Below, piece by piece: positions 2,919 to 62,717 of a stretch of 64,000 nucleotides of DNA. Position numbers and translations under genes: made by a program. Within the stretch, counting starts at the first letter, position 1. Every line of letters starts with the position of its first letter. The stretch comes from Anaerolineae bacterium (lineage in GTDB: Bacteria; Chloroflexota; Anaerolineae; S140-20), in contig JALUTT010000145.1 in the NCBI GenBank assembly GCA_027021705.1, positions 827 to 64,826 on the forward strand. Direction: 5' to 3'. The notes beneath the pieces are model-generated. The model had not been told where the DNA came from, did not search any database, and saw nothing but the letters and a program-made list of their open reading frames with translations.

Positions 2919-3911
2919 ATGCGCCACGCACAAATCCTTTCCACCGGCAGCTACGTCCCCGAGCGGGTGGTGACCAACGCCGAGATGGACCGGATCCTGG
3001 GGGAGCCCACCGACGAGTGGCTGGTCGAGAACGTCGGCATTCGGGAGCGGCGGTGGATGAGCCCCGACCAGACCACCTCCGACCTGGCCGTGGAGGCCTC
3101 CCGCCGGGCGCTGGAGCGGGCGGGGATCGGACCGGAGGCGTTGGACCTGATCATCCTCTCCACCGACACTCCCGACTACCTCTCTCCCTCCACCTCCGTG
3201 GTGGTGCAGCACAAGCTGGGGGCGGTCAACGCCGGCTGCTGGGACGTCAACAGCGCCTGTGCCGGATGGGTCACCGCCCTCGACCAGGGAGCCCGCTACA
3301 TCGCCACCGAGCCCTCCCTCCGCTACGTCCTGGTCGCCGGGGCCTACGGGATGAGCCGCTTCCTCGACCTGACCGACAAGCGGACGGCCAACCTCTTTGC
3401 CGACGGGGCGGGGGCCGTGGTGCTGGGGCCGGGTGAGGAACCGGGGTTTCTGGCCAGCAACTTCCTGGCCCGGGGCGAGTTCCACGACGCCCTGGGCATC
3501 TACACCGGTGGGGCCTTCCGCCCCTGCACGCCGGAGAACTTGGAGCGGTACGGCCCGCCGCGCGTCCAGTTCGTCCGCAAGTTCCCCAAGACCTTCAACA
3601 CCGAGTACTGGCCCCGGCTGATCCGGGGGGCGCTGGACAAGGCCGGGCTGACCGTGGACGACGTGGACCTCTTCCTGTTCACCCAACTGAACCTGCGGAC
3701 CATCGAGCTGATGATGGACCTCCTCGGTCAGCCGATCTCCAAGACCCACTGGGTGATGGACAAGTGGGGCTACACCGGCTCCCCCTGCGTGGCGATGGCC
3801 CTGGATGACGCCATCGCCCAGGGCCGTGGCCCCAACCCCGGCGACGTCATCGTCTTCTGCACCAGTGGCGGCGGGATCACGATGGCGGCGTCGGTCTGGC
3901 GGTGGGTGTGA
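2919..3911 (+). CDS. FabH-like 3-oxoacyl-ACP synthase III family condensing enzyme (KAS III / OleA-like thiolase fold)
   Basis: 330 aa. N-terminus ILSTGSYVPERVVTNAEMDRIL. Active-site Cys context NSACAGWVTAL. C-terminal GDVIVFCTSGGGITMAA. Ribosome-binding site GGGAG upstream. Confidence 0.88.
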   Translation: MRHAQILSTGSYVPERVVTNAEMDRILGEPTDEWLVENVGIRERRWMSPDQTTSDLAVEASRRALERAGIGPEALDLIILSTDTPDYLSPSTSVVVQHKLGAVNAGCWDVNSACAGWVTALDQGARYIATEPSLRYVLVAGAYGMSRFLDLTDKRTANLFADGAGAVVLGPGEEPGFLASNFLARGEFHDALGIYTGGAFRPCTPENLERYGPPRVQFVRKFPKTFNTEYWPRLIRGALDKAGLTVDDVDLFLFTQLNLRTIELMMDLLGQPISKTHWVMDKWGYTGSPCVAMALDDAIAQGRGPNPGDVIVFCTSGGGITMAASVWRWV

Positions 3912-5568: not shown

Positions 5569-6627
5569 ATGGGCGACATACCTACCCTAGAGGGTGTGAC
5601 CTCGCAGATGGTGCAGACCGCCCGGCTCAAGATGCACGTCCTCACCGCCGGGCCGGAGGAGGGCACGCCGGTGCTCTTCATCCACGGCAACGGCTCCTCC
5701 TCGACTTTCTGGGAGGAGACGATGCTGGCGCTGCCGGAGGGGTTCCGAGGCATCGCCCCCGATATGCGGGGCTACGGCGACACCGAGCCCCTGCCGGTGG
5801 ACGCCACCCTGGGCCTGGGCGACATGGTGGAGGACGTCCGCTCGCTGGTGGAAGCGATGGGGCTGGGCAAGTTCCACATCGTCGGCCACTCGATGGGCGG
5901 GGGGGTCGTGATGAAGTACGCCATCGCCTACCCGGACGATCTCCTCTCCATCACCCTGGTGGACACTATGTCTCCCTACGGCTACAGCGGGAGCAAGGAC
6001 GTGGATGGAACCCCCTGCCACGAGGACGGGGCGCCGGCCGGGGCCGCCGGCGTTAACCCCGACTTTGTCAAGCTGATGGCGGCCGGGGAGCGGGACACCG
6101 AGAACCCTATGGCCCCCCGCAACGTGATGCGCCAGTTCTACTTCAAGCCGCCCTTTATCCCCGAGCGGGAGGAGGACCTGCTCAGCTCTATGCTCTCGAC
6201 CCGGGTGGGGGAGGACTGGTATCCGGGCGACTCGGTTCCCTCGGAGCACTGGCCGGGGGCCGCACCGGGGAAGCGGGGGGTGATCAACGCCATCAGCCGC
6301 AAGTACTTCGACGCCAGCGGCATCGTGGAGATCGAGCCCAAGCCGCCTGTGCTGTGGATTCGGGGGGCGGACGACCTGGTGGTCTCCAACAACGCGATGT
6401 GGGACATCGCTGCCCTGGGGGCGATGGGCTTCGTTCCCGGCTGGCCCGGCCCCGACGACTGCCCGCCCCAGCCGATGCTGGACCAGACGCGGGCTGTGCT
6501 GGAGCGGTACCAGGCCAGGGGCGGCTCCTACGAGGAGGTCGTCATCGCCGACGCCGGCCACTGCCCCTTCATCGAGAAGCCCGGCGAGTTCAACGCGGCC
6601 TTCCACGCCTTTCTGCGAGGGGCGTGA
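5569..6627 (+). CDS. Alpha/beta-fold hydrolase (haloalkane-dehalogenase-like subfamily motif HGNGSSSTFW)
   Basis: 352 aa. Nucleophile elbow GHSMGGG. N-terminal LFIHGNGSSSTFWEE resembles the HGNPTSSYLW motif of dehalogenase/OleB-type hydrolases. Ribosome-binding site GGAGG upstream. Confidence 0.8.
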   Translation: MGDIPTLEGVTSQMVQTARLKMHVLTAGPEEGTPVLFIHGNGSSSTFWEETMLALPEGFRGIAPDMRGYGDTEPLPVDATLGLGDMVEDVRSLVEAMGLGKFHIVGHSMGGGVVMKYAIAYPDDLLSITLVDTMSPYGYSGSKDVDGTPCHEDGAPAGAAGVNPDFVKLMAAGERDTENPMAPRNVMRQFYFKPPFIPEREEDLLSSMLSTRVGEDWYPGDSVPSEHWPGAAPGKRGVINAISRKYFDASGIVEIEPKPPVLWIRGADDLVVSNNAMWDIAALGAMGFVPGWPGPDDCPPQPMLDQTRAVLERYQARGGSYEEVVIADAGHCPFIEKPGEFNAAFHAFLRGA

Positions 6628-6706: not shown

Positions 6707-8116
6707 ATGACGAGGAAAAGCTTCGCATGGTCGTTGGTGGCTGTGGTGGCGGTGTTGGGGCTGCTCCTGGCCGCCTGCAAGCCGTCCCCCACGCCCACCC
6801 CGCCGCCCCCCACGGAGGCCCCCACCAAGGCTCCCACCCAGCCGCCGGTGGAGAAGCCTACGGAGGAGGCGACCGAGGCCCCTGCTCAGCCGCCGACCGA
6901 GGAACCGACGGAGGTGCCCCCAGAAACGCCCACGGAGGAAGCGCCTTTCGCCGGCAAGCCCCTGAAGGTCGGCCTGCTCACCGACCAGTCGGGCCCCCTG
7001 GCCATCTACGGCCCGATGCAGGAGCGGGGCTTCCGGCTGGGGCTGGAGTACGCCACCGGTGGCACGATGGAGGTGGCCGGGCGGCCCATCGAGGTGATCG
7101 TCCGCGATAACGGCAGCGACCCGGAGAAAGCCGTCTCGGACGCCCGCGAGCTGATCGAGGCCGAGGGGGTGGAGGTCCTGGTCGGCACGGTCAGCTCCGG
7201 CGCGACGATGGCCGTCCAGCAGGTGGCGGCCGAGAACAAGACCATCCTCATCGTCGAGCCGGCCGCTGCCACCGACATCACCGGTAAGAACTTCAACCCC
7301 TACACCTTCCGCACCAGCCGCACCAACTACCAGGATGCCCTCGTGATGGGCCAGGGCCTGCTGGAGATGGGCGACACCTTCGTCCAGGTCGCCCCGGACT
7401 ACGCCTTCGGCTACGGCTCGGCCTGTGGCTTCTACGCCGTGGTCAAGGGGGGCGGAGGCACCTTCCCCATCAACGACACCCCTGAGCAGTGCGGTGCCGT
7501 CTTCATCCCCTTCGACACCACCGACTTCACCCCGTACCTCCAGCAGGTGTTGGACGCCGATGCGGATGTGCTGATCGTCACCTGGGCCGGGGCCGGCTTC
7601 GTGCCCCTCTTCCAGCAGATGCAGCAACTGGGCATCTTCGACGAGATGGTCGTCGGCACCGGCATCGGCGACAACCAGACGCTGGCCGCGGGCTACGTCA
7701 ACGCCATCGGCTCCACCGGCATCGTCGTCTACCACTACACCCTGCCCGACAACCCGGTCAACGACTGGCTGGTCCAGCGCCACATCGAGGAGTACGGCAC
7801 CCCGCCTGACCTATTCACCAGCGGGGGGATGGCCGCGGCCATCATGCTGGTCGAGGGGGTGAAGCGGACCAACGGCGACACCAGCGCCGATGCCCTCATC
7901 CAGGTCTACGAGGACGACTTCACCTTCGAGGGCCCCAACGGCACCTACATCATCCGCCCCTACGACCACGTCGCCCTGATGCCGCTCTACTACGTCCGCC
8001 TGACCAACGTCACCGACCCTGACTTCAAGTTCGTCGAGCTGATCCGCGAGTTCGCTCCCGAGGAGGCCGCGCCGCCGTGCCTCCTGGAGGGCGAGTACGC
8101 CGACCGCTGTCCATAG
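6707..8116 (+). CDS. ABC transporter substrate-binding lipoprotein, Leu/Ile/Val-binding (LivJ/LivK, PBP1) family
   Basis: Signal peptide with lipobox LLAAC. Long Pro/Thr/Glu-rich linker. Type-1 periplasmic binding-protein body. Ribosome-binding site GGAGGAG. Confidence 0.8.
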   Translation: MTRKSFAWSLVAVVAVLGLLLAACKPSPTPTPPPPTEAPTKAPTQPPVEKPTEEATEAPAQPPTEEPTEVPPETPTEEAPFAGKPLKVGLLTDQSGPLAIYGPMQERGFRLGLEYATGGTMEVAGRPIEVIVRDNGSDPEKAVSDARELIEAEGVEVLVGTVSSGATMAVQQVAAENKTILIVEPAAATDITGKNFNPYTFRTSRTNYQDALVMGQGLLEMGDTFVQVAPDYAFGYGSACGFYAVVKGGGGTFPINDTPEQCGAVFIPFDTTDFTPYLQQVLDADADVLIVTWAGAGFVPLFQQMQQLGIFDEMVVGTGIGDNQTLAAGYVNAIGSTGIVVYHYTLPDNPVNDWLVQRHIEEYGTPPDLFTSGGMAAAIMLVEGVKRTNGDTSADALIQVYEDDFTFEGPNGTYIIRPYDHVALMPLYYVRLTNVTDPDFKFVELIREFAPEEAAPPCLLEGEYADRCP

Positions 8117-11253: not shown

Positions 11254-12354
11254 ATGGAGAGGACCGGACTCCCCTCCTGGCTTCGTCGCCGGTGGCCCGG
11301 CCTGGTCGTCCTGCTCGTTTTGGTCCTCTTCCCCTTCGTCGCCGGCCTGACGATGGGGGACCCAACCGCCATCCCGCCGGAGGTCCAGGGGATGGCGCGG
11401 CTGCTGGCGCTGGCCGGGACGGGGCGGGCCAAGTTCTGGCAGGGGATGATCATCCAGGTGCTGATCCTGGCCGTCTTCGCGATGAGTTACGATCTGCTGT
11501 TGGGGTACACCGGCATCATCTCCTTCGGCCACGCCATGTTCTACGGGGTGGGCGGGTACGTCGTCGGCATCCTCCTGAAGCACTTCGCGTGGCCCATCGG
11601 AGCGGCGGTGGGGGCCGTGGTGCTGGTGGCCGTCGTCCAGAGCCTGCTCATCGGCCTCCTCTCCCTGCGGGTCAAGGGGGTCTACCTGGCGATGGTGACC
11701 CTGGCCTTCGCCGAGTTCTTCTTCATCCTCTCCGAAGCGACCGACTTTCGGCGGTACACCGGGGCCGACGATGGGCTGCACGGGATCTACCTCCCGCCGG
11801 CGATCAGCCCCACCGACCACCGGACCCGCTTCTACTTCCTCACCCTGGTCTTCTTCGTGATGATGTACCTGGCGGCGCGGCGGCTGGTGGACTCCCCCAC
11901 CGGGCGGGTGATGGTGGCGATCCGGGAGAACGAGCAGCGGGCGGCGACGCTGGGGTACAATACCTTTGCGTACAAGTTGATCGCCCTGGTGGCCTCGGGG
12001 CTGCTGGCCGCGTTGGCCGGCGCACTTCACGCCACCTTCAACCTGGGGGTGACCCCCTCCACGCTGAGCGTGGGGACCACCATTGACGTCCTGGCGATGA
12101 CCATCGTCGGCGGCGCCGGCACCCTGACCGGCCCCGTGCTGGGCGCGGCCATCGTCCACCTCCTGGGCTACTGGCTCAACCGCCTCTTCGGCCCGGCGTG
12201 GACCCTGATCTTCGGTGCCGTCTTCGTCCTCATCGTGGTCTTTCTCCCCTACGGCATCGTGGGCACGATCCGAGCCCGCTCCCTTCGGTGGCAGGCCGGC
12301 CGGCGGCGATGGCTGCGGCTGCTGGGTGTGGAGGGGTGGAAAGCGGGAGGATAG
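11254..12354 (+). CDS. Branched-chain amino acid-type ABC permease (LivM-like)
   Basis: Start at the ATG after ribosome-binding site AAGGAG (MERTGLPSWL...). Hydrophobic permease body. Confidence 0.8.
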   Translation: MERTGLPSWLRRRWPGLVVLLVLVLFPFVAGLTMGDPTAIPPEVQGMARLLALAGTGRAKFWQGMIIQVLILAVFAMSYDLLLGYTGIISFGHAMFYGVGGYVVGILLKHFAWPIGAAVGAVVLVAVVQSLLIGLLSLRVKGVYLAMVTLAFAEFFFILSEATDFRRYTGADDGLHGIYLPPAISPTDHRTRFYFLTLVFFVMMYLAARRLVDSPTGRVMVAIRENEQRAATLGYNTFAYKLIALVASGLLAALAGALHATFNLGVTPSTLSVGTTIDVLAMTIVGGAGTLTGPVLGAAIVHLLGYWLNRLFGPAWTLIFGAVFVLIVVFLPYGIVGTIRARSLRWQAGRRRWLRLLGVEGWKAGG

Positions 12355-12403
12355 CGCGACAACGGCGCACCTACGCCACCAACGGAAGGGGTATAAGAGA
12401 CTG

Positions 12404-12442
12404 CCCCAGCACTGCAAGCGGTGCTGGGGCTTGATCTTCTGG
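12404..12442 (+). terminator. Putative intrinsic terminator after the liv-type operon
   Basis: ccccagcac-tgcaagcg-gtgctgggg hairpin followed by cttgatcttct. Confidence 0.5.
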
Positions 12443-19181: not shown

Positions 19182-19285
19182 CAATTCGCAACTTGCAACT
19201 TGCAACTTGCAACTTGCAATCTGCAACCTGCAACTTGCAACCTGCAACTTGTAACTTGCACCTTGCACCTTGCACCTTGCAACTT
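19182..19285. repeat. Tandem heptanucleotide array (CAACTTG, with CAACCTG/CACCTTG variants), about 15 copies, in the pckA 5' leader
   Basis: caacttg x4, caatctg, caacctg, caacttg ... caccttg x3. Confidence 0.95.
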
Positions 19286-26396: not shown

Positions 26397-26570
26397 TAGG
26401 ACTGCGGTGATTACCTACAAGTGAGCGAGAGAGTGGTCCGTAGCAGGCCGTCACGAATTTCTCACAAATGCCCGAATGAGGTGGTCCTTAATTCGTGTAT
26501 TCGTGCCCCATTCGTAGACGGCTAGTCTCCTTATCTCCAAAGATATGGGTAATCACCGGATAGGACTCCG

Positions 26571-27802
<1,232 letters not shown>

Positions 27803-29917: not shown

Positions 29918-32021
29918 GGTCGGGGAAGCGGTGGAGGAGAGGAGCCTGGCCCAGCCCATCCCAGACGCCCGCATCCTGGTCGTCGAGGATCACGTGGGAA
30001 CGGCCAAGCTGATCAGCCGTCTGCTGGAGAGGGCGGGGTATACCGCCCTGGAGTTCCACAGCGGTGAGGAGGCCCTGGACTTCGTCCAGGCCGTGGCGGC
30101 TGGTCAGGAGCCCCCCATTGATATGGCGATCCTGGATGTGATGATGCCCGGCGTGGACGGCTTCCAGGTCTGCGAGCGGATCCGCCAAACGGATCTGCCC
30201 GGCTACGTGCCGGTGCTGATGCTCACCGCGCTCACCTCGATCCGGGACAAAGTGAAGGGGCTGGACCTGGGAGCCGATGACTACCTGACCAAGCCCTTTA
30301 ACCACCAGGAGCTCCTGGCTCGGGTGCGGGCAGGGCTGCGGGTTCGCCAGGCAGAACAGGCCCTCTACCAGCGCAACCGACAACTGGCAGTCCTCCACCG
30401 GATCACCCAGGCGGTCAACTCCAGCCTGGAACTGGACGATGTGCTGACCATCGCGATGGAGGGGATTCAAGAACTCCTCCACGTCGAAGGGGGGTCTCTG
30501 CTCCTCGCCGACGACAAGCGGCAGACACTGACCTTCGTCCGCGCCTTGAGCCGGAATCGTGTCTCGGTGCTCAACCACACCATCGCCATCGGCGAGGGCC
30601 TCGTCGGCCAGGTGATCCGGGAGGGGCGGTCCATCTTGCTCAACGATCTTCAACAAGACCCTCAGTGGGAGGACTGTTTCAACCGGATTCTGGGGCTCAC
30701 CGCCCGGAACCTCCTCTGCGTTCCCCTGCAAGTCCGGGAGCAGGTCATCGGGGCCATTGGGGTGGTCAACAAGTGGGATGGTCCCTTCACCCCGGAGGAT
30801 CAGGGGATCCTGGAGTTGATGGCGGCTTCGGTGGCGACGGCCACGGAGAACGCCCGCCTCTTCTACGAGTTGGCCTCGGCCTACGCCGGTCTGGAGAGCA
30901 GCCGACAAGCGATTATCGAGCACCGCAACCGGCTCCAAGCTCTCTTCGACGGCATCTCTGACCGTATCTACGTGATAGATGTCAACTATCGCCTGCAAGC
31001 GGTCAACGCTGCTCAGGCTCGATGGTTGGGCAAGAAGCACGACTCACCACTGGAGGGCCTTTGCTACGCTATCCTCTACGGACGCAGGATCCCTTGTGAG
31101 GGATGTCAAGTGATGGCGGCCTTCACCCACCGCACAGTCCAGAGCTGGTCGGAGCGCCGCCGCCGGCCCGATGGACGCCGGGAGGAGTGGGAGATCAATG
31201 CCTACCCGGTCCTCAATCGGGGCGGGGAGGTGGAGCAGGCGATCCTCTTTGTCCGCGATGTGACCAAACAGCGAATGCTGGAGGCCTCGTTGCACCAGTC
31301 GGAGAAGCTGGCCGCGCTGGGCCAACTGGCTGCCGGCCTGGCCCACGAGATCAATAATCCCCTCACCGCCATCCTGGCCAACACCCAGCTCCTCCTGCTG
31401 GATACACCTCCCGAAGACCCCGCCTACGAGTCCTTGGACCTGATCCTGCGGGCCAGTGAACGGGCCATCCGGGTGGTGCGCAACCTATTGGACTTTGCCC
31501 GGCAAGAGGCTTACGATTTCGAGCCGGTAGACCTGAATCAGACGATCCGCAATGCCCTGGACCTGGTGCGCCATCAGTTCGACCTAGCCGGCATCGAGGT
31601 CATCTGCGACCTGGCTCCGGGCCTGCCCCCCGCCTACGCTAGCCGTGATCACCTGCAGAGCGTCTGGCTGAACCTTCTCCTGAACGCCCGGGATGCCCTC
31701 CTGGAGGCCGCTGAGAAGCCTCAGCGCTGGGTGCGGATCACCACATCCATCGAAGCCGACTGGTTGCAGGTCCAGGTGATGGACAATGGTGTGGGCATCC
31801 CGGAGCCCCACCTGAGCCGCATCTTCGAGCCCTTTTTCACCACCAAGGCCCCCGGCAAAGGGACCGGTCTGGGCCTCTCCACCTCTTATCAGATCATCCA
31901 GCAGCACCAGGGCCAGATCCTTGTGGACAGTGACCCGGATCAGGGGACGACTTTCACGGTGCTTCTACCGACCGCCAGCCGCAGACCGCCGACCAGGCGG
32001 CCAAGCGGCCAAGCGGCCTAG
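29892..32021 (+). CDS. Hybrid sensor histidine kinase with N-terminal receiver, GAF and PAS domains (REC-GAF-PAS-HisKA-HATPase_c)
   Basis: ILVVEDHV...[11 protein letters not shown] receiver. H-box [11 protein letters not shown]. HATPase G-boxes. Start uncertain (29892 ATG overlaps the regulator gene by 26 nt). The 3' end is encoded by a short tandem-repeat tract. Confidence 0.8.
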
Positions 32022-32116
32022 CGACCTAGCGACTCGGCGGCGAACTGAGGACCGGGGACTGAGGACCGAGGACTACCTGGCCAAGCGACCATCCGACCAA
32101 AGCGAGGAGTGAGACG

Positions 32117-33003: not shown

Positions 33004-33124
33004 GTAACTGTTCACCCTCCCGCAGGTTAGGCGCATTTCCGACGCGAAACCGTGCTTCCAATAGCCCATCGGGGCTGAAGGCGCCCTCGACCGGTGACCT
33101 GCGGGAGGGTAGGCTGAATAGATA
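33004..33124. mobile_element. MITE-like non-autonomous element, about 121 bp, with about 25-bp imperfect terminal inverted repeats containing the CCCTCCCGCAGGT/ACCTGCGGGAGGG palindrome, flanked by a 9-bp direct repeat (TTTATCAGC / CTTATCAGC)
   Basis: Near-identical copy at 57478-57593. Direct repeat at 32995-33003 and 33125-33133. Confidence 0.7.
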
Positions 33125-33137
33125 CTTATCAGCAACG

Positions 33138-33938
33138 GTGGACAGCCTCCTCCTTGCCTCCAACGGTCGCCTGGAACTACTCCTCTTGGGGGTTGTGCTC
33201 ACCTTCTCAGCCCTCTGGTTCGTCGTGCGCTGGATCCACCGCCACTTGCAGGGCGTGGCCCTGCTGTTGACCGGCGATCCCGACATCGCTCTCTACCTCT
33301 ACGCCCTCTTGCTCTTCCCCGGCGTTCTCCTCCACGAGCTGAGCCACTGGCTGGTGGCTCGGGCGTTGGGCGTGCGCACGCGGGGATTCTCCCTGCGCCC
33401 TGCGGCCACATCCCAGGGGGCAGTCCAGTTGGGCTTCGTCGTCATCCAGCGCACCGATGTCGTCCGCTCCAGCCTCATCGGCCTGGCCCCCCTCCTGTCG
33501 GGCATCGGGGTGGTCCTGCTCATCGGGCAGCAGGTCTTCGCCGTTGAGCGGATCGCCGGGGCCCTGGTCGCCGGCGACCTGGGCCGGGCGCTGGAGGGGG
33601 CTGTCGCCGCCTTCCAGGTCCCTGATGCCTGGCTCTGGCTCTACCTCGTCTTCGCCGTCAGCAACGCCATGCTTCCCAGCGCCTCCGACCGTTCCGACTG
33701 GGGGGCGCTGGCTTTGCTCCTCCTGTCCGGTGGTGCGCTCTTCTTCTTGTTCCAGGACGGTGAGCGAGGGGGGCTCTATCGGCTGCTCCAGGGGTGGATA
33801 CCCTCCCTGGAGGCGGGCCTGGCACTTCTGACCATGGCCTTCGGGACGACGCTGGCCGTGGACCTCCTCTTCGCCTTCATCATCGGCCTGCTGGAGCAGC
33901 TCATCGGCGGGCTCCGGGGACGGCGGGTGGAGTATTAG
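33138..33938 (+). CDS. Membrane protein with HExxH motif (M50/site-2-protease-like putative metalloprotease)
   Basis: HELSHW within a hydrophobic core. Several transmembrane helices. Start uncertain: GTG at 33138 is the first start downstream of the inserted element, and the frame is open upstream through the element. Confidence 0.5.
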   Translation: MDSLLLASNGRLELLLLGVVLTFSALWFVVRWIHRHLQGVALLLTGDPDIALYLYALLLFPGVLLHELSHWLVARALGVRTRGFSLRPAATSQGAVQLGFVVIQRTDVVRSSLIGLAPLLSGIGVVLLIGQQVFAVERIAGALVAGDLGRALEGAVAAFQVPDAWLWLYLVFAVSNAMLPSASDRSDWGALALLLLSGGALFFLFQDGERGGLYRLLQGWIPSLEAGLALLTMAFGTTLAVDLLFAFIIGLLEQLIGGLRGRRVEY

Positions 33939-39524: not shown

Positions 39525-39636
39525 GACCGCCATCGGTCGCTGAGGGGCCGGGAGATTCAAAGACATCTCGCGCACAGCCCTGGGCTACACCCAGGGCTGT
39601 GGTTTTTCCTGTGTCAGCCGTCAACGAATGTCCAAC

Positions 39637-40177
39637 GAGTGTGACCAAAATGGGTTGGAGGCGGTAGAAGCGCAACGCCCCTGCATCTTTCCCCCAACAG
39701 CCTCCGATCACGCTCGGTCCAAAAGCCCCCGGAATCACTGAAGCACTGAGGGAAGTGAAGACACTGAGCCGTCGTCTCCCATCCGTTCAATCCGTTCCCC
39801 AATCCGTTGACAGCTCGTCCGCTCCGGCCACGGCGAGAGACACAAAGGGCACCAAGAGCTCAAAGGGCACGAAGCGGTGCGAAAGGCTGGACAAGCCCTC
39901 TTGGGAGCACCACCCCCCCATCCGTTCCAAATCCGTTCAATCCGTTCCCAATCCGTTGACAGCTATCCGTTCCCCAATCCGTTGACAGCTTGTCCGTCCG
40001 CCAACCAAGCCCTCAGAATCACTGACGCACTGAGGGAGGTGAAGACACCGAGCCTTGGGCAGTGCGGCCCAGGTCGTCGGCAAGGCCGTGACCCGACGCC
40101 GGGGAGGGAGTGCATCACTCCTCAGTGAGCTCATTTCTCTCAGCGCTTCAGTGGTTCAACAGCTTTTGGTCACGCTC
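39637..40177. mobile_element. Complex MITE-like element, copy 1 (541 bp), with about 15-bp terminal inverted repeats (GAGTGTGACCAAAA / TTTTGGTCACGCTC), an internal AATCCGTT/TTGACAGCT-rich tandem unit, and a 9-bp direct repeat (ATGTCCAAC / ATATCCAAC)
   Basis: Direct repeats at 39628-39636 and 40178-40186. Same family as 53890-54780. Confidence 0.75.
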
Positions 40178-40357
40178 ATATCCAACGAATAAGCGAATGC
40201 GAATGGATGGTGTTGACGAGGCTCCGGCTTTGCGTTACACTTGGGGTGGTCGGTTGTCGGGGCTCCCTGCTGGTCTGCCGTCCACCGGGCCACCGAATGG
40301 CGAACCCGGCGGGAGCAGAGAGGTGGGAGCGGACACGCGCGATGAGAACAAGGAGGC

Positions 40358-46575: not shown

Positions 46576-46596
46576 TAATGTTCCTCGGCGTCCAAG

Positions 46597-46650
46597 GTAG
46601 TCGGGTGGTCGGGTGGTCGCTTGGTCAGGTGGTCAGGTGCTCGTTTGCTC
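46597..46650. repeat. Heptamer-periodic array (GGTCRNN), the inverted counterpart of the array at 48020-48110
   Basis: gtcgggtggtcgggtggtcgcttggtcaggtggtcagg is the reverse complement of cctgaccacctgaccaagcgaccacccgac at the other border. Confidence 0.8.
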
Positions 46651-48019: not shown

Positions 48020-48110
48020 CGCTGACCGCCGACCGCCGACCATTCGACCAGGCGACCACCTGACCACTCGACCAAGCGACCACCTGACCACCCGACCAAA
48101 TTATAACCGC
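48020..48110. repeat. Heptamer-periodic array (CGACCRN), the inverted partner of the array at 46597-46650
   Basis: cgaccgc cgaccgc cgaccat tcgacca ggcgacc acctgac cactcga ccaagcg accacct gaccacc cgaccaa. Confidence 0.8.
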
Positions 48111-53535: not shown

Positions 53536-53630
53536 TTCGGCATATCTCCTTGCTTCTGACCTTGAGCTTCGCCTCAGGCGACCGTCTCCTTCCGGGTTCC
53601 GTCTGGGACAAAGGCACCAGGATGCCTTGG

Positions 53631-53867
53631 CTATTTGGGGGGCGGAGCTACCAGGATTCTTGCCTGGACCGATTCCAGGAAGAAATCCCGCAGGAACGTG
53701 CTCGCGTTCAAAATCTCGATGCCAATGAGTTCGCCTCGATCGTTCAACTCGGCGGTCACGTTGGGATGGATTTCGACGCTGCCCGCTTCTGGTTCATCGG
53801 AGAAAGCGAGGTGCAGGACATCCTCTTGCTCAAAATACACCATCCGGGTCGTCCTCTTGTCGCTCAT
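53631..53867 (-). CDS. DUF2283-like small protein
   Basis: Start trimmed to MSDKRTTRMVYFEQEDVLHLAFSD...GELIGIEILNAS (DUF2283 pattern). Confidence 0.5.
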   Translation of the reverse strand: MSDKRTTRMVYFEQEDVLHLAFSDEPEAGSVEIHPNVTAELNDRGELIGIEILNASTFLRDFFLESVQARILVAPPPK

Positions 53868-53889
53868 GCAAGTACCTCTGATTTCAAAC

Positions 53890-54780
53890 GAGTGTGACCA
53901 AAATGGGTTGGAGGCGGTAGAAGCGCAACGCCCCTGCATCTTTACCCCAGCAGCTTCCGGTCACGCTCGGTTCAAAAGCCCCCGGAATCACTGACGCACT
54001 GAGGGAAGTGAAGACACTGAACCGTCATCCCCCATCCGTTCAATCCGTTCCCCAATCCGTTGACAGCTCGTCCGCTCCGGCCACGGCGGGAGACACGAAG
54101 GACACCAAGAGCTCAAAGAGCACGAAGCGGTGCGAAGGTCTGGACAAGCCCTCTTGGGGGCACCACCCCCCCATCCGTTCCCAATCCGTTCAATCCGTTC
54201 CCAATCCGTTGACAGCTATCCGTTCCCCAATCCGTTGACAGCTCGTCCGCTCCGGCCACGGCGGGAGACACGAAGGACACCAAGAGCTCAAAGAGCACGA
54301 AGCGGTGCGAAGGTCTGGACAAACCCTCTTGGGGGCACCACCCCCCCATCCGTTCCCAATCCGTTCAATCCGTTCCCAATCCGTTGACAGCTATCCGTTC
54401 CCCAATCCGTTGACAGCTCGTCCGCTCCGGCCACGGCGGGAGACACGAAGGACACCAAGAGCTCAAAGAGCACGAAGCGGTGCGAAGGTCTGGACAAACC
54501 CTCTTGGGAGCACCAACCCCCCATCCGCTCCAAATCCGTTCAATCCGTTCCCAATCCGTTGACAGCTATCCGTTCCCCAATCCGTTGACAGCTTGTCCGT
54601 CCGCCAACCAAGCCCTCAGAATCACTGACGCACTGAGGGAGATGAAGACACTGAGCCTTGTGCAGGGCGGCCCAGGTCGTCGGCAAGGCCGTGACCCGAC
54701 GGTGGGGAGGGGGCACACAACCCCTCAGTGAGCTCATTTCTTTCAGTTGCTCAGTGATTCAACGGCTTTTGGTCACGCTC
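53890..54780. mobile_element. Complex MITE-like element, copy 2 (891 bp), with the same terminal inverted repeats as 39637-40177, about 3.5 internal ~175-bp tandem units, and a perfect 9-bp target-site duplication ATTTCAAAC
   Basis: ATTTCAAAC at 53881-53889 and 54781-54789. Terminal repeats gagtgtgaccaaaa / ttttggtcacgctc. Each internal unit has three TTGACAGCT and multiple ATCCGTT. Confidence 0.8.
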
Positions 54781-54957
54781 ATTTCAAACTTCCTCACGAC
54801 AGCGCTTGCCGTCTTGTCATCTGCGCAAAATGTCTCAAAATCCATTCCCTCTACAAATGTCTCGATGCTCTCCATGGCGGCTAGGATGTCCTTCAGGTAC
54901 AATCGGTAGTCTCTCATATCGGTACGACCTCCGACAGTACCCCCAAACCGTCCTTTG

Positions 54958-56160
54958 CTACGCTCCCCACCCCCGGCTGAAGACGACTTCCTCTTCCTCG
55001 ACCCGCCGGGGCGGGCGCAGGCGGAAGAGCCCTCGGATGATGGCAGGGGCGGCAATGAAGATGATGACCATCGCCTGGACGATCTGGACGATCTCGATGG
55101 GGATGGAGGCGACGGACTGCATCCGGGTGCCGCCGGCCCGCAGGAAGCCGAAGAGCAGCGCGGCCAGGGTGACGCCCAGGGGGTGGCTCTTGCCCAGCAG
55201 GGCCAGGGCGATGCTGTCGAAGCCGTAGCCGGCCGAGAAGCCCAGCGCCATGTTGTGGGTCACGCCCAGCACCTGGACGGCACCCGCCATCCCCGCCAGC
55301 GCTCCGCTCAGGAACATGGCCAGGACGAAGCTGCGGGCGACGTTGATGCCCCCGTAGCGGGCTGCGTTGGGGTTGGCCCCCACCGTCCGCAGCTCGAAGC
55401 CCCACACCGTCTTCCAGAGGAACCACCAGACGAAGAAGGCGGCTGCCAGGGCGATGAAGAAGCCGGCGTGGAAGCGGATGGGGTGGGGCAGGAAACGGGG
55501 CAGGACGGCCGTGGGGGCGATCTCCGGCGTGCGGGCGGTTCCCTTCATCCCCTCCATCGGCCCGTTGAGGAGCCACTCGCTCAGCTTGAAGGCGATGTAG
55601 TTGAACATAATGGTGTTGATCACCTCGTGGGCTCCGGTGCGGGCCTTCAGGTAGCCGGGGACGGCCCCCCACAGCCCGGCGCCGACGATGCCGGCCAGGA
55701 GGGCCAGGGAGACGTGGAGCAGGGCGGGGAGGCCGGTGACGGCGTAGCCCACGTAGGCGGTGCAGAGCCCACCGATGACCAATTGGCCTTCGGCCCCGAT
55801 GTTGAAGAGGCCGGCCCGGAAACCGAGGGCGACGGCCAGCCCGGCGAAGATGTAGGGCACCGAGTTGACCAGGCTCTCGCTGAAGGGGCGCAGGGCCGAA
55901 TAGAGCTTGCGGGGGTTCCCACTGCTGCGCCACTCGCCGAAGGCGCTGGTGATACGGGCCGGGCTGCCAAAGGCCCCCTCGAAGAGGGTGACGTAGGCTT
56001 GCCAGGCTTTCTGGCCGGCCAGCTTGAGCACTTGGCCGGCCGGCTCTTGCCCCGTCGCCTCGATCACCTCGGGGTCGGTGACGATGACGATGAGGCCGGC
56101 GATGAGCAATGCCGTGAGGACGGCCAGGACCGGGACGGTGAAGGTCGTCAGTTTGCGCAT
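54958..56160 (-). CDS. ABC transporter permease, BMP/nucleoside-type (paralogue of the gene at 57594-58868)
   Basis: Start trimmed to MRKLTTFTVPVLAVL. Polytopic. Confidence 0.8.
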   Translation of the reverse strand: MRKLTTFTVPVLAVLTALLIAGLIVIVTDPEVIEATGQEPAGQVLKLAGQKAWQAYVTLFEGAFGSPARITSAFGEWRSSGNPRKLYSALRPFSESLVNSVPYIFAGLAVALGFRAGLFNIGAEGQLVIGGLCTAYVGYAVTGLPALLHVSLALLAGIVGAGLWGAVPGYLKARTGAHEVINTIMFNYIAFKLSEWLLNGPMEGMKGTARTPEIAPTAVLPRFLPHPIRFHAGFFIALAAAFFVWWFLWKTVWGFELRTVGANPNAARYGGINVARSFVLAMFLSGALAGMAGAVQVLGVTHNMALGFSAGYGFDSIALALLGKSHPLGVTLAALLFGFLRAGGTRMQSVASIPIEIVQIVQAMVIIFIAAPAIIRGLFRLRPPRRVEEEEVVFSRGWGA

Positions 56161-56194: not shown

Positions 56195-57457
56195 TCAGGC
56201 TTTCTCGTAGGGTTGACCGTCGGCGGCGGGCGGGATGGCGCGGCCAACGATGCCGGCCAGCGTGATCATCGTCGCCAGGTAGGGAGCCATCAACAGGAAC
56301 TCCGAGGGGATGGGGACCTTGAGGATGGCCAGCTTCGTCTGCAGGGAGTCGGCCAGGCCGAAGATGAGGGAGGCGGCGAAGCCCCCGAAGGGGTTCCACT
56401 TGCCGAAGATCATCGCGGCCAGGCCGATGAAGCCCTTGCCGGCCGTCATCACCTCGTCGAAGCGGCCCACGGACCCCAGGGTGAAGTAGGCCCCGCCCAG
56501 GCCGGCGATGCAGCCGCCGATGATGACGTTGACGTAGCGGGTGCGGAAGACGTTGATGCCCAGCGTGTCGGCCGCCTTGGGATGCTCCCCCACCGCCCGC
56601 GTGCGCAGCCCCCAGCGGGTGTAGAAGAGCACGACGTGGGTAATGATGACCAGCAGGAGCGTCAGGTAGACGACCAGGTTGGTGTTGAAGAAGACCGGCC
56701 CCAGCACGGGGATCTTCGCCAGCAGGGGGATGGGGACGGGGCGGAAGTTGACCGAGGCGTTGAGGCGCTCGTTGGTCGCCAGCCAGCTCGCGCTCAGAAA
56801 GCTGGTCAGCCCCACGGCGAAGATGTTGATGGCCGTGCCCGCGACGATCTGGTCTACTTTGAAACGGATGGCCAGGACGGCCAGGACGGCGGCCAGCAGG
56901 CCGCCGGTGATGAGGGCCACGATGAGCCCCAGGAGCAACCCGGTCGTCGTCCCCAGCCCCCAGATGTTCTGGGCTGCGCTGGAGACGATGACGCTGGTGA
57001 AGGCGGCGCTGAGCATCATCCCCTCGATGGCGATGTTGATGACCGCCGAGCGCTCGCACCAGACGCCGCTCAGGGCGCCCAGGGTGATGGGGGTGGCCCG
57101 CAAGAGGGTGCTGACCAACATCCCCGTCAGGCTGAAGGATTTACCCCGGGCCGCCCAGGTGAGAAAGGCGAAGACGAAGACCAGGAGCAGCGTGCCCAGC
57201 ACGGCGTTGACCGCTCTGAAGCCGCGCACGAGCTGCCAGCCGCCGACGAAGGCGCACAGCAGCCCCAGCACGTAGATGGTTGTCCGGGTCGGCAGTACCA
57301 AGTCGGGCACCGGGATGGGCGGCGTCTTGGTCACGAGGTTGAGCACGAAGGTCGAGCGCTGGTCGGGGGCCGCATCCGGTCCGAAAAGGTAGATGATCGC
57401 AATGCCGATGAGGGCGAAGACCACCCCCATCGCCCGGTCACGGCGCTTCGTAGGCAT
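56195..57457 (-). CDS. ABC transporter permease, BMP/nucleoside-type
   Basis: 420 aa polytopic. CERSAVINIAIEGMML. Confidence 0.82.
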   Translation of the reverse strand: MPTKRRDRAMGVVFALIGIAIIYLFGPDAAPDQRSTFVLNLVTKTPPIPVPDLVLPTRTTIYVLGLLCAFVGGWQLVRGFRAVNAVLGTLLLVFVFAFLTWAARGKSFSLTGMLVSTLLRATPITLGALSGVWCERSAVINIAIEGMMLSAAFTSVIVSSAAQNIWGLGTTTGLLLGLIVALITGGLLAAVLAVLAIRFKVDQIVAGTAINIFAVGLTSFLSASWLATNERLNASVNFRPVPIPLLAKIPVLGPVFFNTNLVVYLTLLLVIITHVVLFYTRWGLRTRAVGEHPKAADTLGINVFRTRYVNVIIGGCIAGLGGAYFTLGSVGRFDEVMTAGKGFIGLAAMIFGKWNPFGGFAASLIFGLADSLQTKLAILKVPIPSEFLLMAPYLATMITLAGIVGRAIPPAADGQPYEKA

Positions 57458-57477: not shown

Positions 57478-57593
57478 GTAACTGTTCGCCCTCCCGCAGG
57501 TTAGGCGCGTTTCCGCCGCGAAACCGTGCTTCCAATAGCCCATCGGGGCTGCAAGCACCCTCGACCGGTGACCTGCGGGAGGGTAGGCTGAAT
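57478..57593. mobile_element. MITE-like element, copy B (same family as 33004-33124), sitting in the permease-permease intergenic gap and abutting the upstream gene's stop codon
   Basis: About 95% identical core. Arms ccctcccgcaggt at 57489-57501 and acctgcgggaggg at 57571-57583. 3' end diverged, with no clean target-site duplication. Confidence 0.7.
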
Positions 57594-58868
57594 TTATGCT
57601 CCCCATCCCCGGGTGAAAACCGGTCCGACCTCTTCCCGCTCTTCCCGCAGCCGGTAGAGCCAGCGGATGATGGCCGGCGCGGCGACGAAGACGATGACCA
57701 TCGCCTGAACGATCTGGATGATGTCAATGGGGATGCGGGCGCTGGACTGCATACGGATGGCTCCGGCCCGCAGGAAACCCCACAGCAGGGAGGCCAGGAC
57801 CACGCCCAGAGGGTGGCTCTTGCCCAGCAGGGCCAGGGCGATGCTGTCGAAGCCATAGCCGGAGGAGAAGGCCTGGGCCATAAAGTGGTTCACCCCCAGC
57901 ACCTCGTTGGTGCCGGCCAATCCGGCCAGCGCCCCGCTCAGGGCCATCGCCAGGACGAAGTTGCGGGTCACGCTCATCCCGGCGTAGCGGGCCGCGTTGG
58001 GGTTGGCCCCCACGGTCCGAATCTCGAAGCCCAGCGTTGTCTTCCACAGGAACCAGTAGACCAGCCAGGCCACCCCTAGGGCGACGAAGAAGCCGGCGTG
58101 GAAGCGCAATGGGTCGGGGAAGAAGCGGGGTAGGTAGGCGCTGGGCAGGATCGGGGGGCTGACGGGGTTGAAGCCGGAGCGCTGCATCGGCCCGGTCAGC
58201 AGCCAGTCGCTGAGCCGGAAGGCGATGTAGTTCATCATAATGGTGTTGATGACCTCGTGGGCTCCCGTCTTGGCCTTCAGGTAGCCGGGGATGGCTCCCC
58301 AGACCGCCCCGCCCAGGGCGCCGGCCAGCAAGGCCAAAGGCAGGTGGAGGAGCCAGGGCAGGCCGGTGATGGTGTAACCCACCCAGGTGGAAACGAGGGC
58401 TCCGATGAAGAGCTGCCCTTCCGCCCCGATGTTGAAGAGGCCACACTGGAAGCCCAGGGCGACGGCCAGCCCGGCGAAGATGTAGGGGGTGGTGGCGACC
58501 AGGCTCTCGCTCAGGGGGTAGAGGGCCTGGAGCAGCCGAGCGTTGCCACGCCCGGCCAGCCAGTCGGCCAGCCCACCGATCAACTCCTTCGGATTGCCGA
58601 TGGAGCCCTCCAGCAGCGCCCCATAGGCGTCCAGGAGCCGGGCAGCGCTCAGGCGCAGGGCCTGACCCGGAGCCTGGAAGAAGCGCCCCCAGGCCCCCAG
58701 CACTTCGGTGTCGGAGATGAGGATGAAGATGCTGCTGATGACGAGGGCGGTGACGATGGCCAGCACGGGGATGAGGAGGGACCGGAGCCAGGCCGACCAG
58801 CGTCGAGGACGCCGGGGCACGGGCGCTTCGACCGGTTCCCTCTCAACGGCGATCTCTGCCTGGGCCAT
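57594..58868 (-). CDS. ABC transporter permease, BMP/nucleoside-type
   Basis: 424 aa polytopic. Confidence 0.82.
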   Translation of the reverse strand: MAQAEIAVEREPVEAPVPRRPRRWSAWLRSLLIPVLAIVTALVISSIFILISDTEVLGAWGRFFQAPGQALRLSAARLLDAYGALLEGSIGNPKELIGGLADWLAGRGNARLLQALYPLSESLVATTPYIFAGLAVALGFQCGLFNIGAEGQLFIGALVSTWVGYTITGLPWLLHLPLALLAGALGGAVWGAIPGYLKAKTGAHEVINTIMMNYIAFRLSDWLLTGPMQRSGFNPVSPPILPSAYLPRFFPDPLRFHAGFFVALGVAWLVYWFLWKTTLGFEIRTVGANPNAARYAGMSVTRNFVLAMALSGALAGLAGTNEVLGVNHFMAQAFSSGYGFDSIALALLGKSHPLGVVLASLLWGFLRAGAIRMQSSARIPIDIIQIVQAMVIVFVAAPAIIRWLYRLREEREEVGPVFTRGWGA

Positions 58869-60611: not shown

Positions 60612-62717
60612 CTACCCGGTGGGCCAGCCCGTCTTGATGGTGCCGTCAATGATCCCCTGGCGGATCTCCTCCAGGTCCTTCTTGATCTGATCCGGCACCC
60701 GGTCCTCCCAGTCGTGGAAGGGGGCCAGGCCGACGCCGTCGTTGGCCAGCGTGCCCACGTAGACGCCGCAGCCGTTGAAGTTGCCCTCCACGGCTTGCTT
60801 GACGGTGTTGAAGACGGCGTTGTTCAACCGCTTCTCGACGCTGGTGATCAGGATGCCCTTCTCCTGGGGCAGGGTGTAGTACTGGTCCACGTCCACGCCG
60901 ATGCCGCCCACGTTGGCTCCGGCCTCGGCCCGCTCGCGGACGGCGACCAGGGCCCCGTTGCCGGTCTTGCCGCCGGCCCCGAAGAGCACGTCAATCCCCT
61001 CATCTAGCAGCGAGTTGGCTGCGGCCTTCCCCTTCTCCGGGGCCTCGAAGTCGCCCACGTAGGTCTTGGAGAAAGAGACGTTGGCCCCGTACTTTTCGTT
61101 GTAGTAGTTGATGCCGCTCTCGAAGCCGACGGCGAACTGGACGACGGGCGGGATCTCCATCCCGAAGACGGCCCCTACCTTCGGATCATCGGGGTCCAGC
61201 TCCGTGGCCATCGCGGCGGCCAGGTAGCCGCCCAGGAAGGCCGCCTCGTCGGAGGCGAAGACGATCCCCTGGACGTTCTCGATGCAGGGGTCGTAGGCGA
61301 AGTCCACGATGGCGAACTTGATGTCCGGGTAGAGAGGGGCCATCTTGGCCGTGGCGTCGGCCAGCAAGAAGCCGACGGTGATGATCATGTCGTAGCCCTG
61401 CTCGGCGAACTCGGTGATGTTGTTCTCGTAGTCGGCCTGGGCCTGGGACTCGATGAACTGGGCCTCGACGCCGGGGATCTCCTTGGCCGCCCGCGCCAGC
61501 CCCTCCCAGGTGCTCTGGTTGAAGCTGGCGTCGTCAATGCCGCCCACATCGGAGATCATCCCCACGCGGAAGGGCTTGACCTCCCCTTCCTCCTTCGGGG
61601 GCTTCGCCTCGCCCAGCGGCCAGCCGGTGTTGATGGTGCCGTCAATGATGCCCTGGCGGACCTCTTCCAGCTCGGCCTTCAGGTCGTCAGGCACCTGGTC
61701 CTCGAAGTCGTGGAAGGGGGCGATCCCGACGCCGTTGTTCTTCAGGGTGCCCACGTAGGTGCCGCCCTTGAAGGTGCCGTCCAGCACCGCCTTGATGGCG
61801 TCGAAGACGGCCACGTCCATGTTCTTGAGGATGGAGGTGAGGTAGACCTCTTTATACTCGGGGGCGGAGACGTACCAGTCGGTGTCCACGCCGATCATCA
61901 TCGCGCCCCGCTCCTTGACGGCGGCGGCGGTGCCCAGGCCAACGGGGCCGGCGACGGGCAGGATGATGTCGGCTCCCTCGTCCATCAGCGATTCGGCGAA
62001 GCGGCGGCCGTCATCGGTGGACTCGAAGTTGCCGGTGAAGAGGCCGTCGCCTTCGGCGTTGCTCCAGCCCAGCACTTCGACGTTGGTACCGTGCTTCTGG
62101 TTGTAGTACTCGACGCCCGACTCGAAGCCGACCATAAAGATGGTCACCGGCGGGATGTTGATGCCGCCGAAGGTGCCCACCTTGCCCGTCTTGGTCATCC
62201 CGGCGGCCAGGTAGCCGGCCAAGAAGGCGGCCTCATCGGTGGAGAAGGTCAGCCCCAGGACGTTGTCCAGCGGCGGGTCGTAGGCGAAGTCCACGATGGC
62301 GAACTTCTGATCGGGGTAGGCTTCAGCGGCCGCTTTGGTGGCGTCGCCCAACAGGAAGCCGACGGTGATGATCAGGTCGCAACCCTGCTGGATGAACTCG
62401 TTGAGGTTGCGCTCGTAGTCCGTCTGCTGCTGGGACTCCAGGTACTGACCGTCAACGCCCAGCTTTTCCATCGCGTCCTGGACGCCCTTCCAAGCGGTGG
62501 CGTTGAAGCTGCGATCGTCAATGCCGCCCACGTCGGTCACCTGGCAGATCTTGGCCTTCTTCTCCGGCTTGGGCATCTCGACCGGTTTGGTTGGCTCCTC
62601 CTTGGGGGCCATCTCCTTGGTGGGCGTGGGGGTCGGGGCTGCGCCGCCGCCACAGGCGGTCAGCACCAGCGCGACCACCGTCAGCAGGCTGAAGAAGATG
62701 AGAACCGTTTTGCGCAT
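60612..62717 (-). CDS. BMP-family (PnrA/Med-like) ABC substrate-binding lipoprotein with two tandem BMP domains
   Basis: 701 aa. Lipobox LTAC. PT-rich linker. Two roughly 330-aa repeats, each with the DVGGIDD...GVDTD BMP pattern. Confidence 0.82.
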   Translation of the reverse strand: MRKTVLIFFSLLTVVALVLTACGGGAAPTPTPTKEMAPKEEPTKPVEMPKPEKKAKICQVTDVGGIDDRSFNATAWKGVQDAMEKLGVDGQYLESQQQTDYERNLNEFIQQGCDLIITVGFLLGDATKAAAEAYPDQKFAIVDFAYDPPLDNVLGLTFSTDEAAFLAGYLAAGMTKTGKVGTFGGINIPPVTIFMVGFESGVEYYNQKHGTNVEVLGWSNAEGDGLFTGNFESTDDGRRFAESLMDEGADIILPVAGPVGLGTAAAVKERGAMMIGVDTDWYVSAPEYKEVYLTSILKNMDVAVFDAIKAVLDGTFKGGTYVGTLKNNGVGIAPFHDFEDQVPDDLKAELEEVRQGIIDGTINTGWPLGEAKPPKEEGEVKPFRVGMISDVGGIDDASFNQSTWEGLARAAKEIPGVEAQFIESQAQADYENNITEFAEQGYDMIITVGFLLADATAKMAPLYPDIKFAIVDFAYDPCIENVQGIVFASDEAAFLGGYLAAAMATELDPDDPKVGAVFGMEIPPVVQFAVGFESGINYYNEKYGANVSFSKTYVGDFEAPEKGKAAANSLLDEGIDVLFGAGGKTGNGALVAVRERAEAGANVGGIGVDVDQYYTLPQEKGILITSVEKRLNNAVFNTVKQAVEGNFNGCGVYVGTLANDGVGLAPFHDWEDRVPDQIKKDLEEIRQGIIDGTIKTGWPTG

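Follow-up and report, generated by a model that had tools for sequence, protein, structure and literature searches.

A probable non-autonomous transposable element with an internal minisatellite at a permease locus of an Anaerolineae bacterium

Identity and boundaries of the element

The stretch of DNA considered here (the window) comprises 64,000 nucleotides of contig JALUTT010000145.1 from an Anaerolineae bacterium (GCA_027021705.1, positions 827 to 64,826) and contains, between two permease genes, an 891-bp non-coding element which is most likely a non-autonomous DNA transposon, that is to say a MITE (miniature inverted-repeat transposable element), mobilised in trans, carrying an internal minisatellite and having no designed function at this place. 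It is the second of two copies in the window, hereafter copy 2, and occupies positions 53890–54780, where it is bracketed by a perfect (9/9) 9-mer, ATTTCAAAC, the left copy of which lies at 53881–53889 and the identical right copy at 54781–54789, both on the plus strand. An earlier reading of the same DNA, referred to below as the first-pass annotation, had described an 891-bp MITE with a perfect 9-bp duplication. Both the length and the duplication are borne out, and the assignment as a MITE is upheld by the inverted ends, the 9-bp duplications, the existence of several copies, the empty site of copy 1 and the strain polymorphism of copy 2.

Copy 2 starts with GAGTGTGACCAAAA and finishes with the reverse complement of GAGCGTGACCAAAA, such that over the first 23 positions the two ends match at 18 (18/23). 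The left terminal inverted repeat (TIR) has GAGTGTGACCAAAA as its core and is imperfect to ~23 nt (53890–53912, plus strand), while the right TIR reads GAGCGTGACCAAAAGCCGTTGAA on the minus strand (54758–54780). These terminal repeats are conserved across two subfamilies of the MITE, A and B. In other words, the first ~24 nt of the left end are common to subfamily B and to a 128-bp element in locus L006, and the last ~25 nt of the right end are likewise common to subfamily B. The G+C content is 60% for the element and 66% for the window as a whole.

Every short-read contig breaks inside the element, and the question necessarily arises of whether it, or at least its array of three units, is an artefact of assembling a repeat-rich genome. 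In this regard, contig L025 runs from copy 2 into pieces of other copies and is probably a chimera, and the copies of subfamily B share and swap flanks between contigs. Against such an explanation, both junctions were recovered with the same 9-mer in independent assemblies of different samples (the left junction in L001/L029, L031 and L033, the right junction in L025/L039 and L040), the units of the array differ at one to five positions, unlike collapsed or duplicated reads, and the empty and filled states of copy 1 form a clean polymorphism. An assembly artefact is therefore highly improbable. The stretch of L025 in question (11360–12430; ERZ27262676 k141_87231) passes from the right end of copy 2 through a partial element and a linker to a copy with the flank of L021, and from there into unrelated genes (DUF3160); it is probably a misassembly.

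Copy 1 and its empty site

The other copy in the window, copy 1, is 541 bp long, contains one 175-bp unit and lies at 39637–40177, or at 39628–40186 (plus strand) with its flanks ATGTCCAAC and ATATCCAAC, which match at 8/9 positions. The two copies are collinear from the first base to the last, copy 2 having two extra 175-bp units. An empty site was sought among contigs that encode the exact RpiA protein located downstream of copy 1. Two such contigs, L037 (GCA_011374585.1) and L036 (ERZ940665), have no element and a single ATGTCCAAC, with flanks that are 99.0–99.4% identical to the window; a third, L035 (ERZ27262676), has the site filled and is 100% identical to the window. This clean pair of empty and filled sites shows the mobility of copy 1.

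Since ATGTCCAAC occurs singly at the empty site, it is this 9-mer that was duplicated as the target, one of the two copies at the filled site having since mutated from G to A. An alternative 8-bp duplication for copy 1, CAACGAAT, fails for copy 2 and is at odds with the empty site, which shows ATGTCCAAC to be what was duplicated. Nor do the 9-mers belong to the element itself, as the core of a recombinase site would, because other copies have unrelated 9-mers.

Internal organisation

The order of parts in copy 2 is left TIR, 79-bp module, a subterminal repeat termed S1, the 175-bp array, a second S1, an inverted S1 and right TIR. The 79-bp left module (53890–53968, plus strand) is kept in all subfamily-A copies and closes with a degenerate sequence resembling the right end, CAGCAGCTTCCGGTCACGCTC (53948–53968); correspondingly, GAGCGTGACCGGAA is found on the minus strand at 53955–53968 with two mismatches. 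The module looks like a nested or ancestral mini-MITE, which would imply a composite origin. Composites do occur in L014 and L025, where a linker and another right arm come after a right end, and these, together with the degenerate internal right end, suggest an origin of subfamily A through nesting or composite mobilisation.

The 48-nt repeat S1, AAGCCCCCGGAATCACTGACGCACTGAGGGAAGTGAAGACACTGAACC, is at 53976–54023 (plus strand) and belongs to the direct-repeat family D13, which has four copies in the two elements. The second direct copy at 54610–54657 (plus strand), also of family D13, is 90% identical to the reference copy, and an inverted copy, CTCAGTGAGCTCATTTCTTTCAGTTGCTCAGTGATTC, at 54724–54760 (given on the plus strand) pairs with the left S1 in the hairpin predicted for copy 1.

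Between the two direct copies of S1 lies the minisatellite (54043–54603, plus strand), for which Tandem Repeats Finder gives a score of 1073 at a period of 175 bp, with 3.2 copies and 98% matches. Its three units are 170–174/175 identical in pairwise comparison, and each contains six ATCCGYT heptamers (at 11/9/11/14/12-nt spacing), a degenerate run of the 9-mer GCACNAAGR and two copies of TTGACAGCT, rather than the three motifs per unit that had been counted in the first-pass annotation. Both motifs are strongly concentrated in the MITE: ATCCGYT occurs 21 times in copy 2, nine times in copy 1 and just three times elsewhere on that strand of the window, and of the 11 occurrences of TTGACAGCT in the window, where 0.23 would be expected, ten are in the MITE (seven in copy 2 and three in copy 1).

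The number of units is one in copy 1, L018 and L022; L021 has about three and L020 at least two, the arrays of these two loci being interrupted by unrelated microsatellites. Because unit number varies in this way between copies, interrupted arrays included, the array appears to change in length by slippage or unequal recombination. Such expansion and contraction of the 175-bp block would be independent of transposition, and would explain why copy 1 has one unit and copy 2 about three.

Coding capacity, signals and the array as possible cargo

The element has no coding capacity. Its open reading frames (ORFs) reach at most 85 amino acids (aa), the six that were scanned gave no significant Pfam match, and 175 bp is not a multiple of three, such that the reading frame shifts with every unit. 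As regards RNA, Rfam returned no match at gathering score for the whole window and none at E ≤ 1 for 53600–55000, and a tRNA search of the DNA found none. A structured RNA was thus rejected, there being no Rfam match and the predicted fold of copy 2 being no better than that of shuffled sequence (z = +1.3). The predicted fold of copy 1 is a long hairpin through its ends (minimum free energy −210 kcal/mol, z = −3.6), which arises because the inverted S1 and the TIRs pair.

A consensus scan of both strands of 53890–54780 found no complete promoter of sigma-70 type (−35 and −10 boxes at 16–18-nt spacing) and no intrinsic terminator, and the same scan rules out TTGACAGCT as either. Every TTGACA in the element is without a TAnnnT 16–18 nt downstream. 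Since the organism uses canonical promoters, for example the TTGACA-17-TATACT at 26563–26591 upstream of the GAPDH gene in the window, the isolated TTGACA boxes of the array are not promoters by that standard.

A functional view of the array would be that the phased ATCCGYT heptamers, ending in TTGACAGCT, are putative binding sites for a host DNA-binding protein or promoter-proximal modules, which the MITE has spread and which alter the expression of the DUF2283 gene, permease B2 or rpiA. What lends this view some appeal is the roughly helical spacing of the heptamers (9–14 nt) along with their enrichment in the two copies, the recurrence of the same three-heptamer-plus-GAC architecture in the otherwise different core of subfamily B, the presence of heptamer-triplet palindromes in intergenic DNA outside the MITEs, and the promoter activity demonstrated for another MITE, BrickBuilt (PMC4596501). 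It has to be set against the lack of any −10 element 16–18 nt after a TTGACA in the element, in an organism that does have canonical promoters, and against the orientation of the copy 2 motifs, all of which point away from DUF2283 and B2. Moreover, the heptamers do not have the same sequence from one module family to another, which speaks against a single protein dedicated to binding them. A regulatory role for the array is, on this evidence, quite unlikely, and neutrality of the insertions appears the better description. The element would have no bearing on a major open question unless the heptamer arrays proved to be functional binding sites.

The palindromes just mentioned form a family of ~75–100 bp in which each arm consists of three phased heptamers (ATTCGTG, ATTCGTT or ATCCGYT; ATYCGNN) followed by GAC. 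They are found at 26448–26520 in the window, at 7340–7403 and 13040–13140 in L018, as four tandem copies at 1–405 in L021, at 3417–3510 and 5093–5156 in L022, and at 6120–6200 in L023. Of about nine insertion sites, three (those of copy 1, L021 and L023) fall inside such palindromes, and the cores of both MITE subfamilies are laid out in the same manner. It could be imagined that the transposase prefers palindromes, that the MITE cores are built from these modules and that the MITE is a vehicle which captures, amplifies and disperses putative binding or structural arrays, although we regard this as unlikely. In a weaker, Pack-MULE-like variant, the MITE might have carried the 167-bp HepT flank described in the next section into the locus of copy 2, displacing a toxin-like gene.

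The locus of copy 2

On the minus strand, the genes around copy 2 run in the order double-Bmp binding protein, ATP-binding cassette (ABC) ATPase, permeases A1 and B1, permease A2, HepT-like remnant, MITE, DUF2283, permease B2, MqsA-like zinc-ribbon gene, UbiD and UbiA. Pfam confirms the neighbours named in the first-pass annotation: permease A2 upstream (PF02653; 54958–56160, minus strand), permease B2 downstream (PF02653; 52309–53535, minus strand) and, closest to the element, the DUF2283 gene (PF10049, E = 3.8e-13; 53631–53867, minus strand), the Shine-Dalgarno sequence of which begins 2 nt after the left duplication. The idea that two paralogous permeases flank copy 2 needs to be qualified, however. 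There is indeed a duplicated permease pair, as shown by identities of 62% between A2 and A1 and of 53% between B2 and B1, but the two flanking genes are two different subunits, A2 and B2 being just 28% identical. On its other side, the MITE adjoins an N-terminal remnant of a HepT-like (DUF86) gene of 52 codons (54759–54917, minus strand), which matches positions 1–37/120 of PF01934 with E = 3.7e-4, below the curated cut-off, and the last seven codons and stop codon of which are supplied by the MITE itself. The MITE thus lies between the HepT remnant and the ribosome-binding site of DUF2283, within an islet between A2 and B2 that has 54–58% G+C, as against 65–70% in the permease genes.

The locus was compared across eight independent contigs that encode, or adjoin, an identical DUF2283 protein. 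A junction with the MITE is present in four of them (the window, L001/L029, L031 and L033), the other junction being seen in L025/L039 and L040. In the remaining four, which belong to the same species (L026/L028, which is GCA_027016555.1, and L030, L032 and L034), the MITE is absent, and a 103-aa ORF and DUF2283 stand between A2 and B2. The comparison with genomes lacking the insertion, as had been proposed in the first-pass annotation, therefore establishes that presence of the MITE is polymorphic, whereas the alternative state at copy 2 is a different cassette and not a clean empty site. It also disposes of the suggestion that the insertion split or rearranged a second transporter unit. Because MITE-free strains also carry two small genes between A2 and B2, namely the 103-aa ORF and DUF2283, the separation of these permeases predates the MITE. 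The element would accordingly sit in a low-G+C islet of toxin–antitoxin-type genes that had already parted the second permease pair. As to the 103-aa ORF, the possibility that it is a DUF4258 toxin was rejected, as it gave no match in Pfam and does not resemble the DUF4258 protein encoded nearby.

In detail, window positions 56262–54957 correspond to L026 6301–7606, and homology resumes at GAGGTACTTGCATG. Between these points, window 53879–54956 (1078 bp, made up of 167 bp with the HepT remnant, then the MITE with a duplication on either side, and finally 2 nt) stands against L026 7607–7894 (288 bp, with the 103-aa ORF).

The element need not have landed in exactly this spot. It may instead have inserted first into an intact HepT gene, either in a larger ancestral islet here or elsewhere, after which a block of HepT N-terminus, MITE, duplication and 2 nt was brought next to DUF2283, the route being adjacent deletion or cassette replacement of the 103-aa ORF. 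Such a history would account for the boundaries of the window-specific block, one of which falls 1 nt beyond the stop codon of A2 and the other 2 nt beyond the left duplication, and for the HepT homology ending at ...RKFEI where homologues go on ...RKFEIIGEA. It is also in keeping with the strict association of HepT remnant and MITE on the one hand (4/4 assemblies) and of the MITE-free state and 103-aa ORF on the other (4/4), as well as with the loss, again in the MITE-bearing haplotype, of the DUF4258 gene downstream of B2. The perfect duplication does not separate the two histories because it is expected under both. What tells against prior insertion into HepT is that it requires an extra, unspecified recombination event, and that homologue searches found no donor HepT locus with a MITE. 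Furthermore, within the 178-bp block GTTTGAAAT is, by reading, the 9-mer richest in AT, and an AT-preferring element could have landed there by chance. Prior insertion into HepT is, overall, a credible but somewhat doubtful history; simple insertion in situ could have occurred by chance landing in a junction of HepT remnant and DUF2283, the uninterrupted form of which would be ...GTGAGGAAGTTTGAAATCAGAGGTACTTGCATG.... A third possibility, composite transposition of HepT remnant and MITE with a new duplication, was rejected, as the outer flanks GCTACGCTC and AAGTACCTC differ.

Two further features of this locus may be recorded. A 277-bp stretch of the DUF4258 gene downstream of B2 is missing from the window (52296/52297, compared with L026 9477–9753). 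The MITE-bearing haplotype is thereby without the upstream partners of its two small antitoxin-like genes (the 103-aa ORF in the case of DUF2283, the DUF4258 gene in that of the MqsA-like gene), leaving two orphan antitoxin-type genes around B2. In the substrate-binding protein of the operon (window 60612–62717; 701 aa), two Bmp/PnrA-like domains are fused (PF02608, two stretches), and its gene contains DNA repeats, 60622–61552 and 61618–62536, which are 77–81% identical.

Copies elsewhere and subfamily B

Further copies were sought by an exact-match scan of 185,579 species-representative genomes with an 18-mer from the left end and by a scan of metagenome contigs with a 20-mer. The 18-mer gave 12 matches, 11 of which are unrelated (six in one conserved Rhodoferax-type coding stretch, the rest scattered singles), the twelfth being a 128-bp relative with the duplication AAATCAATA in a Thermoflexales metagenome-assembled genome (MAG). 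The 20-mer gave eleven loci, all non-autonomous and all from one JGI hot-environment metagenome, Ga0256830. Among the copies are four complete subfamily-A elements with their own 9-mers, AAATGATAA, CAATGATAA, CACGAATTT and CTCGGCGCC/CTCAGCGCC. Overall, seven complete elements each have a different 9-bp flank, five matching at 9/9 and two at 8/9 positions. The seven duplications have a mean G+C content of 33% (by hand count), as against 66% for the window, and six of the seven targets are AT-rich. The copies of the family are 88–97% identical to one another; there has been no very recent burst, yet insertions are polymorphic among strains that are ~1% apart.

Subfamily B (~320–400 bp) has only the first ~24 and last ~25 nt in common with subfamily A, its core consisting of triplets of the heptamer ATTCGTT and octamer microsatellites. 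Since A and B have common ends and different cores, it is the ends that define the family, and the cores appear as interchangeable mosaics of short repeats. The five copies of subfamily B are at L014 3094–3494, L015 1253–1653, L016 1840–2236, L017 8187–8587 and L024 4698–5017. L017 and L024 have the left flank in common, L015 and L024 the right flank, and this sharing of flanks points to assembly chimeras or to recombination between copies.

The hosts of the family are probably uncultured Chloroflexota of hot environments related to Thermoflexales, to judge from the NCBI labels ('Chloroflexi bacterium') and the single element in the Thermoflexales MAG. The family had no match in the libraries and papers searched, and no sequence relative was found outside its own lineage in the collections searched.

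Mobilisation and the parent transposase

The inverted ends, an empty site, the absence of coding capacity and duplications that are constant in length but not in sequence are all in keeping with mobilisation in trans by a transposase of the DDE type. Such an enzyme would act on the ~23-bp imperfect TIRs and make staggered cuts 9 bp apart in the target, mostly at AT-rich 9-mers. Its autonomous partner would be expected to have a transposase ORF between GRGYGTGACCAAAA ... TTTTGGTCACRCYC and to be flanked by 9-bp duplications.

Several observations weigh against interpreting copy 2 as a trans-mobilised MITE. There is no transposase among the 40 window proteins scanned with Pfam, and a search for an autonomous element having the same ends drew a blank in the window, in ~250 kb of related loci, in plasmids and in viral contigs, the last of these scanned with both ends. 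The 891 bp of copy 2 exceed the usual size range of MITEs, within which the 541 bp of copy 1 do fall; the excess is due to the 175-bp array alone, and the count of three units comes from this assembly only. In subfamily B, matching 9-bp flanks are absent from all five copies despite the same ends. Finally, with the MITE-free haplotype of copy 2 not being a clean empty site, insertion in situ at that locus is not proven, and the HepT gene is truncated within 2 nt of the duplication, the window reading ...RKFEI and then the upstream sequence of DUF2283.

As to which transposase might be involved, the prokaryotic Mutator-like transposons (p-MULT; IS256, ISLre2, ISKra4 and TnGBS) have direct repeats of 8–9 bp, inverted repeats of 18–39 bp and a conserved terminal C/G (Guerillot et al. 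2014, PMC3942029). The present element resembles them in its 9-bp duplication, its TIR of ~23 bp and its 5'-G...C-3' ends, features that are not exclusive to the superfamily. Other insertion sequence (IS) families also make 9-bp duplications, and an IS256/Mutator-like origin is thus to be taken as a lead and not as an assignment. The habit of ISLre2 and TnGBS of inserting at a fixed distance (15–17 bp) upstream of a −35 box is unsupported across the copies: unlike in those elements, the nearest −35-like hexamers are 34–36 nt from the right end at both window copies, and are absent at the others.

Comparison with known elements

The closest parallel by description is BrickBuilt of Porphyromonas gingivalis (Klein et al. 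2015, PMC4596501), which is likewise non-coding, has small inverted-repeat ends and contains an internal tandem array of variable copy number. Each of the two elements occurs in several copies, none of them within an intact gene, and is restricted in its hosts. BrickBuilt belongs to another phylum and has a 23-nt unit without spacers, in contrast to the composite 175-bp unit seen here, and its array has been shown experimentally to have bidirectional promoter activity (PMC4596501).

Similarly, MITEAba12, which is mobilised by ISAba12 (PMC6382973), and Chunjie of Geobacter (PMC3184786) are alike in their TIRs, 9-bp duplications, AT-rich character or targets, stable hairpin folds and presumed mobilisation in trans. 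Compared by description, they are shorter (113–235 bp, as against 541–891 bp) and have simple cores where the present element has a mosaic one, and for MITEAba12 the parent IS has been identified. The mobility of Nezha of Anabaena and Nostoc (Zhou et al. 2008, in PMC3184786) was, as here, deduced from empty and filled orthologous sites; Nezha is 130–170 bp long and has TIR and direct repeat in common with ISNpu3, whereas no such partner was found for the present element.

The family described here is new. MITEs with 9-bp duplications, and one that bears a minisatellite, were already known, and it is the 175-bp composite unit that is unusually long. A limited literature search found no papers on small mobile elements in this lineage of Chloroflexota and nothing relevant on repeats in Thermoflexus. 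The work therefore adds, for uncultured thermophilic Chloroflexota, a MITE family that is active or was so until recently. In practical terms, short-read metagenome assemblies are interrupted at the element and its relatives, which can also give rise to chimeric contigs in this lineage, and the pattern of presence and absence, together with the variable 175-bp array, provides usable strain markers.

Other repeats in the window

Heptamer tandem arrays of a different kind are found in the window at 247–335, 1906–2014, 2820–2903 and 19188–19285, with the units (GACGTGA)n, (GCGTGAT)n, (AACGTGA/AGCGTGG)n and (GCAACTT)n, respectively. All four lie in short spacers between genes of the same strand, directly upstream of the next start codon, and we take them to resemble the STRR heptamer repeats of cyanobacteria.

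A repeat of ~117 bp with a 14-bp stem, ACCCTCCCGCAGGT ... ACCTGCGGGAGGGT, is present in the window at 33004–33147 and, in the spacer of permeases A1 and B1, at 57478–57621, as well as in L022 (~3520–3560) and L023 (~300–420). Its copies are ~90% identical and have no Rfam match, and it could be a small mobile element or an unannotated RNA.

Octamer microsatellites, GGTGGTCG / CGACCACC and CCAAGCGG, occur in the window at 46596–46650 and 48038–48098 and at 31964–32074. They include 51-nt inverted arms around a 1.4-kb stretch of small ORFs without a Pfam match, and octamer microsatellites of the same kinds are found within the MITE arrays of L020 and L021, which they interrupt.

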